64,000 nt of DNA from Dehalococcoidia bacterium (GTDB taxonomy: Bacteria; Chloroflexota; Dehalococcoidia; Lucifugimonadales; UBA3495). Below the pieces are notes generated by a model, which saw only the letters and a list, made by a program, of their open reading frames with translations, ran no database searches and was not told where the DNA came from. The stretch lies in contig OZ219860.1 in NCBI GenBank assembly GCA_964291545.2, positions 745,786 through 809,785 on the forward strand, written 5' to 3'. Each line of letters begins with the position of its first letter. Within the stretch, counting starts at the first letter, position 1. This document shows, one piece after another, positions 6,535-33,173 of this stretch. Both the position numbers and the translations under genes were made by a program.

Positions 6535-6957
6535 ATGACCAGCGCTCCGAGAGGTCAAGCCCAACGCTACATCCAGGGCATCCAGCGAAACCTGACCCGC
6601 CTCGAAGAAATCCTGCGACGTCTGGAAGCCCAGTCCCCACAAATCCCTACCCAGGACGCCCGCAGCGAGCTTCTAAGCCAGGTCCACGTCGCCGGAGCAA
6701 TGGACCAGCGCCGCCTCTTTGAGTTACTCGACCAGCGCAGCATGAGCCACGCCTGGATTGGCGCCCAGGTCGGCGCAGAGTACCTCGACGTTTGGCAGGG
6801 CGCCGACGGCCGCACCTGGTATCGCGTCACCCAGCGCGCCGTACGCGAGTTGTACCTCGGCCAGATGGCCGCTCAAGCCGGCCAGCCTGCCGAGTCCCAA
6901 TCGCCGCTATCAGACGACTGGGACAGCCAGGAGGACTCCGCCTATGACCGCCTATAA
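6535..6957 (+). CDS. hypothetical protein, candidate antitoxin partner of the downstream PemK/MazF-like gene
   Basis: The 140-aa ORF overlaps the toxin start by 14 nt. It has an acidic C-terminal tail (SPLSDDWDSQEDSAYDRL). No AbrB or RHH fold was recognised by eye. Confidence 0.4.
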   Translation: MTSAPRGQAQRYIQGIQRNLTRLEEILRRLEAQSPQIPTQDARSELLSQVHVAGAMDQRRLFELLDQRSMSHAWIGAQVGAEYLDVWQGADGRTWYRVTQRAVRELYLGQMAAQAGQPAESQSPLSDDWDSQEDSAYDRL

Positions 6958-8219: not shown

Positions 8220-8460
8220 GTCATTCCGAGCGAAGCCCAGGAATCTAAAATCCATGTCCTCCAACCCGACGTCATGGCCCTCTCCATTCCCGCATCCAAC
8301 ACGTCATTCCCGCGCAGGCGGGAATCTAAAATCCATGTCCTCCAACCCGGCATCATTGCCCCACCATCCTCCCATTCTCCCCGGACCCCTTCCATGCCCC
8401 TTCGTCCTGGCGCGGCAGCACCGACCGTTCGTCCTGAGGTTCTCGAAGGGCGAACAACGC
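8220..8460. repeat. intergenic repeat cluster (two GTCATTCC modules at 8220-8253 and 8303-8334, plus a hairpin-type module near 8425-8460)
   Basis: gtcattccgagcgaagcccaggaatctaaaatcc and gtcattcccgcgcaggcgggaatctaaaatcc are each followed by atgtcctccaacccg. ccgttcgtcctgaggttctcgaagggcgaac lies downstream. Confidence 0.8.
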
Positions 8461-19703: not shown

Positions 19704-19845
19704 AGCTACCCCTCGAAAACCTTCGCGAATTGCCCGGCATCCTTGCCGGTTCCCTTATACCCTCGTCAAACTCAGTTCCTACTTGATTTTACCCCTCCCA
19801 AATCCCCGCCGCCAACCCTCCTGGCCGCCCCTAACATGTCATTCC

Positions 19846-20892
19846 TGTATGTGTTAGCTAATTCATTGACAGATTTTGCAAGGTTTGCAGTGGAGTGTTG
19901 CCTCCAAGGCCCTGGTGGGGTCTCTCGGTGTTGTAGTAGAGGAGGTACTGCATCAGTTCATCCCTCAGCTCGTCCAAGGACTCGAAGGTGGTCCCTTCCA
20001 AGAGGTCCTCATTGAGGGTTCTCCAGAAGCGCTCGACCTTGCCATTGGTCTGGGGTCTGTAGGGCCTGGTGTAGCGGTGCTTGATCCCCAGCTCCATTAG
20101 CATCCTCTCGAAGGGATGCTGGTCCTTACTCTTGTGGGTGGCCACCTCAGGCCCATTGTCGGTGAGTATGGCCTCAAAGCGCACCCCGTACTCGGCATTC
20201 AGCAAGTTGATGCTCTTTAGGGCGGCGAACATCACGCTCAGGCTCTTTATGTCCTCCACCACCTCCGCCCAGGCCAGGCGGGTGCAGGAGTCCAGCAGAG
20301 ACACCAGGTAGTAGCGCTGTCTGGCGCCCAGGATCAGGTCCTTGCTCAGATGGTGGCAGTCCAGATGCCCCAACTCTCCTGCCCTGGCCTTGATGATCCT
20401 TCTTTTGGACTGTTCCATGGGTTTGGTCAACTTGTTCAGGTTATGACGCCGGCTGATAGCGTAGATGGTGGATGGCGCAGGAGTGCGGGACTTCAGTACC
20501 GGCTGGAGTATCGCATATATCTCATACCGATTTATACCTTTACGCCTTAGCTCCAGCACCTTCTCCTCTATGAAAGGCAGCGTGCGGCGGCTCTTCCACC
20601 TGGGGCCGCGCTTGAGAGGCAGTAGAGCTAGGTCACTACCATCTTGCTTGTAGCGGTTGTAATACTTGGCAAAGGTCTGTCGGTTGGTGCCGTGGAAGTT
20701 GTAGAAGTCCTGGACGAAGCGGAACCTGGGGTGTTCCTTCGCCTTGACTTGTTGGTACTCCCGGATGAGAAACCGCCACTTCTGGACATAGTTTCGTTCC
20801 ACTGTACGGTCATTGCTGTTGTTACGCATCCTCGCCTCCAGAATAGCTATTTGTCCCATGCTATTCTGTCAACGAATTATCTGACATCTACA
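19846..20892 (-). mobile_element. IS481-family insertion sequence, copy A (1047 bp), flanked by ATTCC duplication
   Basis: The ends are tgtatgtgttagctaattcattgacag (19846...) and ctgtcaacgaattatctgacatctaca (...20892), forming imperfect inverted repeats of about 27 bp. The flanks read gtcATTCC|IS|ATTCCgagcg. Confidence 0.85.
19858..20859 (-). CDS. IS481-family transposase (rve integrase-core DDE)
   Basis: N-terminal HTH region. DDE contexts are GHLDCHHL, ILTDNGPE and TNGKVERFWRTL. It differs from the 31804..32805 copy by one residue. Confidence 0.9.
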   Translation of the reverse strand: MGQIAILEARMRNNSNDRTVERNYVQKWRFLIREYQQVKAKEHPRFRFVQDFYNFHGTNRQTFAKYYNRYKQDGSDLALLPLKRGPRWKSRRTLPFIEEKVLELRRKGINRYEIYAILQPVLKSRTPAPSTIYAISRRHNLNKLTKPMEQSKRRIIKARAGELGHLDCHHLSKDLILGARQRYYLVSLLDSCTRLAWAEVVEDIKSLSVMFAALKSINLLNAEYGVRFEAILTDNGPEVATHKSKDQHPFERMLMELGIKHRYTRPYRPQTNGKVERFWRTLNEDLLEGTTFESLDELRDELMQYLLYYNTERPHQGLGGNTPLQTLQNLSMN

Positions 20893-21001
20893 ATTCCGAG
20901 CGTAGCCGAGGAATCTCAATCCCCCGCACGCAAGCCGTTACATAGCCTACAGCTAGGCGGCCCGCCCGCCCTCAGTTTGCCCAACCACCCACCCCCACCG
21001 G

Positions 21002-31728: not shown

Positions 31729-31770
31729 CCTACTCCTCCCTCAACCCCTCATTCCCGGAAGTGTCATTCC

Positions 31771-32817
31771 TGTAGATGTCAGATAATTCGTTGACAGAAT
31801 AGCATGGGACAAATAGCTATTCTGGAGGCGAGGATGCGTAACAACAGCAATGACCGTACAGTGGAACGAAACTATGTCCAGAAGTGGCGGTTTCTCATCC
31901 GGGAGTACCAACAAGTCAAGGCGAAGGAACACCCCAGGTTCCGCTTCGTCCAGGACTTCTACAACTTCCACGGCACCAACCGACAGACCTTTGCCAAGTA
32001 TTACAACCGCTACAAGCAAGATGGTAGTGACCTAGCTCTACTGCCTCTCAAGCGCGGCCCCAGGTGGAAGAGCCGCCGCACGCTGCCTTTCATAGAGGAG
32101 AAGGTGCTGGAGCTAAGGCGTAAAGGTATAAATCGGTATGAGATATATGCGATACTCCAGCCGGTACTGAAGTCCCGCACTCCTGCGCCATCCACCATCT
32201 ACGCTATCAGCCGGCGTCATAACCTGAACAAGTTGACCAAACCCATGGAACAGTCCAAAAGAAGGATCATCAAGGCCAGGGCAGGAGAGTTGGGGCATCT
32301 GGACTGCCACCATCTGAGCAAGGACCTGATCCTGGGCGCCAGACAGCGCTACTACCTGGTGTCTCTGCTGGACTCCTGCACCCGCCTGGCCTGGGCGGAG
32401 GTGGTGGAGGACATAAAGAGCCTGAGCGTGATGTTCGCCGCCCTAAAGAGCATCAACTTGCTGAATGCCGAGTACGGGGTGCGCTTTGAGGCCATACTCA
32501 CCGACAATGGCCCTGAGGTGGCCACCCACAAGAGTAAGGAGCAGCATCCCTTCGAGAGGATGCTAATGGAGCTGGGGATCAAGCACCGCTACACCAGGCC
32601 CTACAGACCCCAGACCAATGGCAAGGTCGAGCGCTTCTGGCGGACCCTCAACGAAGACCTCTTGGAAGGGACCACCTTCGAGTCCTTGGACGAGCTGAGG
32701 GATGAACTGATGCAGTACCTCCTCTACTACAACACCGAGAGACCCCACCAGGGCCTTGGAGGCAACACTCCACTGCAAACCTTGCAAAATCTGTCAATGA
32801 ATTAGCTAACACATACA
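31771..32817 (+). mobile_element. IS481-family insertion sequence, copy B (1047 bp), flanked by ATTCC duplication
   Basis: The ends are tgtagatgtcagataattcgttgacag ... ctgtcaatgaattagctaacacataca. The flanks read gtcATTCC|IS|ATTCCgagcgaagccgaggaatc. Confidence 0.85.
31804..32805 (+). CDS. IS481-family transposase (rve integrase-core DDE)
   Basis: The 333-aa product is identical to the 19858..20859 product except for one D/E residue. Confidence 0.9.
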   Translation: MGQIAILEARMRNNSNDRTVERNYVQKWRFLIREYQQVKAKEHPRFRFVQDFYNFHGTNRQTFAKYYNRYKQDGSDLALLPLKRGPRWKSRRTLPFIEEKVLELRRKGINRYEIYAILQPVLKSRTPAPSTIYAISRRHNLNKLTKPMEQSKRRIIKARAGELGHLDCHHLSKDLILGARQRYYLVSLLDSCTRLAWAEVVEDIKSLSVMFAALKSINLLNAEYGVRFEAILTDNGPEVATHKSKEQHPFERMLMELGIKHRYTRPYRPQTNGKVERFWRTLNEDLLEGTTFESLDELRDELMQYLLYYNTERPHQGLGGNTPLQTLQNLSMN

Positions 32818-33173
32818 ATTCCGAGCGAAGCCGAGGAATCTCACATCCCTGGCTGCCAGCCAGCCGATGGGCGCGTTTGACCCCCGCCCCAACTGTCATT
32901 CCGAGCGCAGTCGAGGAATCTTAAAACCCTGGGTGCCAGCCAGCCGATGGACGCGTTTGAACCCCCCGCCCCAACTGTCATTCCGAGCGCAGTCGAAGAA
33001 TCTAAGAACCCTGGGTGCCAGCCGGCCGATGGGCGCGTTTGAACCCCCTGCCCCAACTGTCATTTCGAGCGAAGCCGAGGAGTCTCAAATCCCTGCCTAC
33101 CACCTAGGTCATGCCACCGCGCACACTCCGCACATCCACCCGTCATTCCCGTGCAGACGGGAATCTAAAATCC
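32818..33173. repeat. tandem array of about 80-83-bp units (4-5 copies), each starting with a GTCATTCC module
   Basis: Module starts are at 32815 (virtual, IS-interrupted), 32895, 32977, 33059 and 33142. The first three units share ccctgg.tgccagcc.gccgatgg.cgcgtttga.cccc.gccccaact. Confidence 0.85.

Follow-up and report, generated by a model that had tools for sequence, protein, structure and literature searches.

Insertion sequences (ISs) that target repeats are listed in the IS3, IS110, IS4, IS256 and IS5 families, and the IS481 family is absent from that list (Tobes and Pareja, 2006, PMC1525189). IS481-family elements make target duplications of 2–15 bp, mostly 6 bp (Kojima, 2023, PMC10045372). 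Here we describe an IS481-like element of 1047 bp in a stretch of 64,000 nucleotides from a Dehalococcoidia bacterium (contig OZ219860.1, positions 745,786 to 809,785 of the forward strand), called the window below. The element has inserted at one bond of a high-copy palindromic repeat, duplicating 5 bp. It is very probably a recently active member of a divergent IS481-like clade in which a single DDE transposase selects the target by sequence. The classical IS481 target, known from the Bordetella literature, is NCTAGN, whereas the target of this clade is YGTC|ATTCC.

The repeat resembles a group described in Neisseria. There the NTS element, CGTCATTCCCGCGMAVGCGGGAATCYRG, extends the older dRS3 repeat, and the small GIY-YIG nuclease SsnA uses it as substrate in the form of single-stranded DNA; in many bacteria, ssnA homologues have related repeats, termed SRM, on their flanks (Chenal et al., 2025, PMC11893778). 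Cleavage by SsnA depends most on the three bases that precede the palindrome (GTC in Neisseria). SsnA binds only single-stranded DNA, and its cut lies several bases upstream of CGTC, not at C^A (PMC11893778). IS110-family elements and the Nf prophage recombinase integrate into the dRS3/NTS repeats of Neisseria (cited in PMC11893778 and PMC1525189).

A sequence-only reading of the window had known of no description of repeat targeting in the IS481 family. This agrees with our full-text literature searches, which turned up neither an IS481-type element that targets a repeat nor a transposon of any kind that targets NTS/SRM repeats at this bond (ISfinder lies outside that scope). PMC11893778 makes no mention of transposon insertion into NTS/SRM repeats.

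Insertions in the window

The window holds two copies, A and B, each with TGT...ACA ends and one DDE transposase gene. The features are as follows.

19838–19845, + strand: left module piece of copy A, gtcATTCC; the first ATTCC of the duplication is 19841–19845
19846–20892, − strand: IS copy A, 1047 bp; read on the + strand, the right inverted repeat is 19846–19875 and the left inverted repeat 20863–20892
19858–20859, − strand: transposase gene of copy A, an open frame of 333 aa that differs from copy B at one residue
20893–20922, + strand: right module piece of copy A, ATTCCgagcgtagccgaggaatctcaatcc; the second ATTCC is 20893–20897, followed by the module remainder gagcgtagccgaggaatctcaatcc
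31763–31770, + strand: left module piece of copy B, gtcATTCC; ATTCC is 31766–31770
31771–32817, + strand: IS copy B, 1047 bp; left inverted repeat 31771–31800 (TGTAGATGTCAGATAATTCGTTGACAGAAT), right inverted repeat 32788–32817
31804–32805, + strand: transposase gene of copy B (DDE), a frame of 333 aa
32818–32848, + strand: right module piece of copy B, ATTCCgagcgaagccgaggaatctcacatcc; the second ATTCC is 32818–32822, plus gagcgaagccgaggaatctcacatcc
32895–32925, + strand: uninterrupted TGTCATTCCGA-type module, an example of an empty target; more start at 8220, 17629, 23295, 32977 and 36731

Copies A and B are 99.4% identical, and both have gtcATTCC on the left and ATTCCgagcg(t/a)agccgaggaatctca on the right. 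Re-reading the sequence bears out their positions, their left flanks and their opposite orientations relative to the module. Without the IS and one ATTCC, the sequence reads as the module that stands intact at the sites in the last line above.

The sequence-only reading had taken A and B for independent insertions, and the flanks agree. Outside the ~32-bp module, the common sequence of the 1-kb flanks consists of short repeats of at most about 67 bp, which lie at differing distances from the insertion point. The two copies are therefore independent, and duplication of a segment that already contained the IS with its flanks is ruled out.

Copies in the genome

The assembly has three contigs (C1–C3; 2.62 Mb in total, 62% G+C) and seven full copies of the IS, 98.9–100% identical and all with intact frames of 333 aa. 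Six of the seven carry the ATTCC duplication inside TGTC|ATTCC|GA(G/C), with unrelated flanks; two lie one way relative to the module and four the other way. The seventh (C1 139342) has tgtcattcc on the left and ggaatgaca on the right, which places the GTC-side half of the target on both flanks. Recombination between two targeted copies is expected to give such an arrangement. Since GTCATTCC adjoins 7/7 copies, none was found in the unrelated sequence that had been named as evidence against site specificity. The claim that insertion is specific to one bond and makes the same 5-bp duplication is borne out by the six copies here and by 57 further duplication-bearing copies elsewhere (see below). 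Placement at a fixed position of a high-copy intergenic repeat, here in all seven copies, is what PMC1525189 calls a ‘type 1 association’. No solo ends or derivatives of the miniature inverted-repeat type were found in the genome, where the seven copies account for every occurrence of the 12-mer tips.

With the IS copies removed, the genome contains 5611 ATTCC pentamers, 293 GTCATTCC sites and 87 TGTCATTCCGA sites. Enrichment of the gtc|attcc|gagcg site had been suggested as a check. Given ATTCC, the probability that 6/6 duplication-bearing insertions lie in GTCATTCC is about 2e-8; under uniform insertion it is about 3e-26. All six lie in the TGTCATTCCGA class (Fisher p = 6e-4 against other GTCATTCC sites), and in this genome the 81 CGTCATTCCGG sites and the 24 CGTCATTCCCG sites have no insertions.

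We also considered a symmetric GTC-N5-GAC target. Insertions occupy 2/4 GTCATTCCGAC sites and 4/84 GAG sites (p = 0.02). This excess is confounded by local hopping, because all four GTCATTCCGAC sites lie close together beside one IS110 element, and the candidate was rejected. That locus lies outside the window. An IS110-family gene (C1:21737–23260; DEDD, ‘FVGIDVSKD...’) with a leader of ~300 nt sits between IS copies C1 20690–21736 and 23261–24307 and is flanked by two direct copies of a rare module variant, GTCATTCCGACGAGCGCAGCGACGAGGAATCTCAAGTCC. The IS481-like element occupies two of the four GTCATTCCGAC sites there, which brings two unrelated IS families together on one repeat superfamily.

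Relatives in other genomes

A transposase scan of one genome per prokaryotic species gave 199 relatives, from which 80 loci were kept. We located IS ends by the conserved inverted-repeat motif and classed 75 clean full-length copies, seven from this genome and 68 from others. Transposases of the other-genome copies are 59–95% identical to the one here. Most hosts are Dehalococcoidia and other Chloroflexota known from long-read metagenome-assembled genomes (MAGs; 73–95% identity). The remaining hosts (59–66%) are Coxiellaceae, Arenicellales, Hydrogenedentota, Zixibacteria, Thermodesulfobacteriota, a Clostridiales MAG, a Flavobacterium, Chitinophagaceae, Draconibacterium and another Bacteroidota MAG. 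Protein clusters matching the transposase at E <= 1e-20 number 2867, so the clade is large; the best 120 of these are all at least 74% identical and do not reach down to a clade boundary at 40–58% identity. No close relatives were found on plasmids at E <= 1e-30.

The target rule holds throughout these copies. A perfect 5-bp duplication is present in 63 copies, this genome's six included, and GTC directly adjoins it on one side in 63/63; there are 0 copies with a perfect duplication and no adjacent GTC. The other copies are hybrids with two GTC-side halves (5 copies: C1 139342, L005, L006, L047 and L070), hybrids with two hairpin-side halves (2 copies: L043 and L067) and 5 copies with one-base discrepancies or the homopolymer noise typical of long-read assemblies. 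Two loci of one genome, L008 and L009 (OZ244924.1), have near-identical flanks; in one copy both tips are left-type (TGTAGATG...CATCTACA), and in the other both are right-type (TGTATGTG...CACATACA). These patterns would fit recombination or conversion between inverted IS copies.

Across the 63 sites the target reads as follows.

−4: pyrimidine in 62/63
−3 to −1: GTC in 63/63
+1: A in 56
+2: T in 62
+3: T in 59
+4: C in 56
+5: C in 54
+6: G or C

Joining is staggered by 5 bp immediately 3′ of YGTC and occurs in either orientation, with a mild bias (41 versus 22, binomial p = 0.023). The duplicated pentamer tracks the local repeat variant of the host: ATTCT in some Dehalococcoidia, GTTCC in one MAG, ATTGC in Bacteroidota and Thermodesulfobacteriota, ATTTC in a Flavobacterium, and ATCCT and ATCCC in a Coxiellaceae MAG. 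A module, or a half-unit derived from one, is the site of all but about five of the 63 insertions. Five non-module sites keep GTC with unrelated pentamers (gtcATCAT, gtcATAAT, gtcCTTCTgac, gtcGTTGG and gtcGCTCC).

Distant IS481-type elements do not follow this rule. Outgroup members (28–36% identity; viral contigs) have the 6-bp duplications CTTAGG, CCTAGT, CCTAGC, ACTAGT and GCTAGC, of the NCTAGN type, so the GTC|N5 rule is a property of the clade and not of the whole IS481 family.

Two accounts would produce this pattern without target selection by the transposase. In the first, one original insertion was copied from module to module by homologous recombination or gene conversion through the homology of the module halves, mimicking site specificity. 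Modules are indeed numerous and similar, and the hybrids with two left or two right module halves show that IS copies do recombine. Against this, the left homology would be only about 8–12 bp, sequences diverge directly after the duplication (GAGCTG, GAGCGA, GAGCGT, GAGCGC, GACGCC, GACGAG), both orientations occur within one genome, and flank comparison shows no conversion tracts beyond the IS ends. At the five non-module sites the duplication matches the local pentamer, as only true transposition achieves. We consider copying by recombination very unlikely.

In the second account insertion is random, and only the copies in harmless intergenic repeats survive. Such repeats are plausible neutral sites, and all of the evidence comes from resting copies. 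Selection cannot, however, place 63/63 insertions at one phosphodiester bond of the repeat or keep GTC at the non-module sites, and other intergenic repeat families here are never hit. This account is very improbable, the least probable of those considered.

Empty orthologous sites add to the case for transposition into pre-existing targets. For copies L004 and L002 of the congener G003 (same genus), the orthologous sites in this genome are uninterrupted and have a single pentamer, with flanks about 87–93% identical. Each of these empty sites has a base change within the 9-mer (GGACT for GGAAT; GCC for GTC). At the copy A locus, the module is absent altogether from congeners G001 and G003. Congener G002 (L087, contig C15 ~6820–6890), at the position orthologous to 19838–20922, has a 7-bp insert at the exact insertion bond, ctgtc-ATCTACA-attccgag. 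These seven bases match exactly the IS tip found on that side in copy A; they are a footprint or deletion relic left by an earlier insertion into this bond.

Sequence or hairpin

The module belongs to a large repeat family of the general form cccaac(c/t)(c/t)GTCATTCC, a variable palindromic core and GGAATC(T/C)A. The sequence-only reading had called it REP-like (repetitive extragenic palindromic). It is a high-copy palindromic repeat, and not an anonymous one: it resembles the NTS/SRM type cut by Ssn nucleases (PMC11893778). One module subtype, GTCATTCCCGCGCAGGCGGGAATCTA, departs from the Neisseria NTS consensus only in its first and last bases. Modules of the CG and GG subtypes conform to the published SRM pattern (HGTCWY tag, palindromic core, RNCYNB), and only 18 GTCATTCC sites match it. 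By hand check, the GA subtype that carries this genome's insertions does not match, so we term the targets SRM-like, not SRM. No Rfam match to the module was found.

The genome has three small GIY-YIG genes. One, at C3:547900–548118, encodes an ssn-like protein of 95 aa (MKQPCVYILTS...) and lies 1.5 kb from one IS copy; a module directly precedes the gene and inverted modules directly follow it, giving the NTS-ssnA-NTS layout. A second ssn-like gene (C2:999323–999541) is module-flanked, has an in-frame TAG and is probably a pseudogene. The third (C3:535674–535889) differs in sequence type and lacks a module directly at its start.

Some further features of the repeats stand apart from the insertions. 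An array of whole modules with a period of ~82 bp lies downstream of copy B (window 32818–33173), and tandem arrays of half-modules (GTCATTCCGAGC.GCCAGCCCCCACT repeated, right arm absent) lie at C3:545000–546900 and C1:24300–24350. In the window, 21/22 GTCATTCC sites are on the + strand. Module orientation follows the sign of the local GC skew (C2 755–850 kb, 18 plus and 3 minus, skew −0.125; C2 1038–1133 kb, 2 plus and 27 minus, skew +0.064). The strand cut by SsnA in Neisseria is the C-rich strand here. The strand bias may reflect avoidance of the sense strand on the lagging-strand template or be a by-product of gene orientation.

Given such a repeat, target choice could be guided by structure or by a host factor. 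The transposase would then recognize an extruded hairpin or cruciform, or a bound protein such as Ssn, and GTC would matter only within that complex. The module-flanked ssn-like gene is compatible with this, and because GTC is critical for SsnA cleavage in Neisseria (PMC11893778), IS and nuclease depend on the same bases. A palindrome partner is also present at most targets, a point weighed in the next section. The remaining evidence argues for sequence. At 14/63 sites no exact inverted copy of the duplication lies within 40 nt, and by inspection about ten of those 14, in half-modules or unrelated sequence, are without any palindrome partner arm and keep GTC+N5; two partner-less sites of this genome lie in half-module tandem arrays (C3 545384 and C1 23261), and the five non-module sites are also among those without a partner. 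In folding as single-stranded DNA, modules of the GA type, the one used in this genome, do no better than shuffles (z about 0 to −1), whereas the unused GG and CG types are strong hairpins (z −3.3 and −4.2). Among the classified copies none is inserted at the mirror position on the right arm. The binding and cutting preferences of SsnA do not fit either: it acts on single strands, away from C^A, whereas a 5-bp duplication implies staggered joining to duplex DNA. We regard guidance by structure or host factor as unlikely.

Because hairpin-less sites are used, the hairpins used here are weak and the right arm is never hit, the determinant looks like the duplex sequence YGTC(A)TTCC, not the hairpin. 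Targeting is thus independent of the right arm in a minority of cases. Of the earlier reading, in which the insertions hit one position of a ~33-bp module, the fixed module bond stands; the determinant itself narrows to the 5′ edge, YGTC|ATTCC, given the 14/63 sites above and the five with unrelated pentamers.

A broader idea is that IS clade, Ssn nuclease and repeat form a three-way system and do not coincide by chance. The transposase would read exactly the bases that Ssn needs (GTC and the left arm), and insertion would put the IS tip in place of GTC before the hairpin. Repeats that Ssn has processed, or that are extruded, might recruit the element; alternatively, it might spread because its insertions disarm Ssn sites. 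It would then follow SRM-bearing genomes across phyla as a parasite or partner dedicated to that system. We think this improbable.

Transposase and mechanism

The IS has the tips TGTAGATG...CACATACA and imperfect terminal inverted repeats of ~27–30 bp (TGTAGATGTCAGATAATTCGTTGACAGAAT versus TGTATGTGTTAGCTAATTCATTGACAGATT). Mimicry of the target by the inverted repeat (TAATTCG and TGAC(A) against TCATTCCG and (A)TGAC) was tried as an explanation and rejected; there is no repeat–target covariation across the clade, and such mimicry is therefore speculation. The single open reading frame (ORF) has no programmed frameshift. Its frame is 333 aa, and most homologues start at Met11, giving 323 aa. Non-coding DNA amounts to 33–63 nt upstream of the gene and 12 nt downstream, which leaves no room for an IS110-type guide RNA.

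The transposase has the integrase-core domains rve, rve_3 and rve_2, with catalytic residues D167, D234 and E276. An AlphaFold model built from a 22-sequence alignment (mean predicted local distance difference test score 84.5) predicts a long N-terminal helix, two helix-turn-helix units (residues 39–69 and 85–128 of the 323-aa form) separated by a disordered basic linker, LLPLKRGPRWKSRR, and an RNase H-fold core, in that order. Among solved structures, IS21 IstA and retroviral integrases come closest. The model is that of an ordinary DDE transposase with two helix-turn-helix units and shows no special targeting domain. The N-terminal region is strongly conserved across phyla in the alignment, and the target rule is conserved together with it.

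These features suggest the following mechanism. The transposase would join both IS ends across a 5-bp stagger directly 3′ of the tetranucleotide YGTC, with ATTCC or a close variant strongly preferred, so that the cut would be YGTC^ATTCC and ATTCC would be duplicated. The 9-mer YGTC+ATTCC is the conserved 5′ flank and left stem arm of NTS/SRM-type hairpin repeats. Because these repeats fill the intergenic regions of the host, nearly every insertion lands in a repeat, at the same bond and in either orientation, and the repeats probably serve as abundant, harmless landing pads. The transposase alone probably reads the motif on double-stranded DNA, needing no guide RNA, hairpin extrusion or host factor, and recognition most likely involves the conserved N-terminal helix-turn-helix region and the basic linker. 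A two-fold symmetric transpososome could bind the one-sided tag either way, and both orientations would result. Transposition is presumably copy-out-paste-in, by analogy with the related IS3 family.

Several observations count against this interpretation or limit it. A hairpin partner is present at 49/63 targets, so DNA structure may contribute. All of the evidence consists of resting copies; selection after insertion may contribute, although precision to a single bond is more than it can explain. No orthologous empty site for copies A and B was found in the congeners compared (the intergenic region of B is not conserved), and exact scans of metagenome contigs found no empty alleles of A or B. 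The T...GA subtype is the sole target type in this genome, and the 95%-identical element of congener G003 also takes C at −4 and GG or CG after the duplication. These flanking preferences are therefore soft or historical, and T at −4 and GA after the pentamer are preferences in this genome, not requirements.

The family assignment also has its limits. IS481 (NF033577) is by far the best NCBIfam match at 203.5 bits, ahead of IS3 at 75.7 bits, and the element has the family features of a single DDE (rve) ORF, a length of about 1–1.3 kb and TGT/ACA inverted repeats. The score falls below the curated cut-off of 224, and the 5-bp duplication of the 63 copies is within the IS481 range and not of the majority length. 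The assignment made in the sequence-only reading thus stands in the broad sense only, given the score, a duplication of 5 bp and not the usual 6 bp, and a target other than NCTAGN.

Significance

IS481-like elements become the sixth transposase family among insertion sequences that home to intergenic repeats. This is also the first such case found for repeats of the NTS/SRM type, which were recognized as Ssn substrates only in 2025. The one-bond rule is unusually sharp and holds across transposases at 59–100% identity in at least six phyla. If the protein does read its target directly, a protein of 323 aa and a motif of roughly 9 bp, without an accessory protein or space for a guide RNA, would make a tractable model of how DDE transposases read targets. 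The rule explains assembly breaks at such repeats in these genomes and gives annotators a guide to the ends of the element.

Comparison with known systems

The element shares with the classical IS481 and IS1002 of Bordetella its TGT...ACA ends, a length of about 1.0–1.1 kb, a single DDE transposase (rve/rve_3), NF033577 as best match and a short, sequence-defined target. It differs in duplicating 5 bp, not 6, at YGTC|ATTCC in place of the palindromic NCTAGN, in its 28–36% identity to the NCTAGN-type outgroup and in scoring under the NF033577 cut-off.

Compared with IS1397, ISKpn1 and ISPsy8 of the IS3 family and other REP-targeting ISs (PMC1525189), it likewise occupies a fixed position in a high-copy intergenic palindromic repeat, a safe landing site. 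As in the IS3-family cases, the transposase is of the DDE (rve) type and is itself thought to choose the target. Unlike these, it is IS481-like and encoded by one ORF without a frameshift. The repeat resembles the NTS/SRM type and is not an enterobacterial or pseudomonad REP linked to RAYT/TnpA-REP tyrosine transposases, and the rule spans several phyla, not one genus. IS1397 inserts in the REP loop, whereas insertion here is at the 5′ foot of the stem, beside the asymmetric GTC tag.

The module itself has the oriented (C/T)GTCATTCC 5′ part, palindromic core and GGAATC(T/C)(A/R) 3′ part of NTS/SRM repeats, and it flanks an ssn-like gene as they do; the GA subtype hit here differs from them in being a weak hairpin outside the SRM search pattern. 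With the IS110 elements and Nf recombinase of Neisseria, the element has in common the use of the same repeat superfamily (ATTCCC-N8-GGGAAT, CGTC tag) as integration site, and an IS110-type gene lies between two modules in this genome. The IS110 enzymes belong to the DEDD recombinases, take their guidance from a bridge or seek RNA and leave no comparable duplication, whereas the element described here has a DDE transposase, no room for a guide RNA and a 5-bp duplication.

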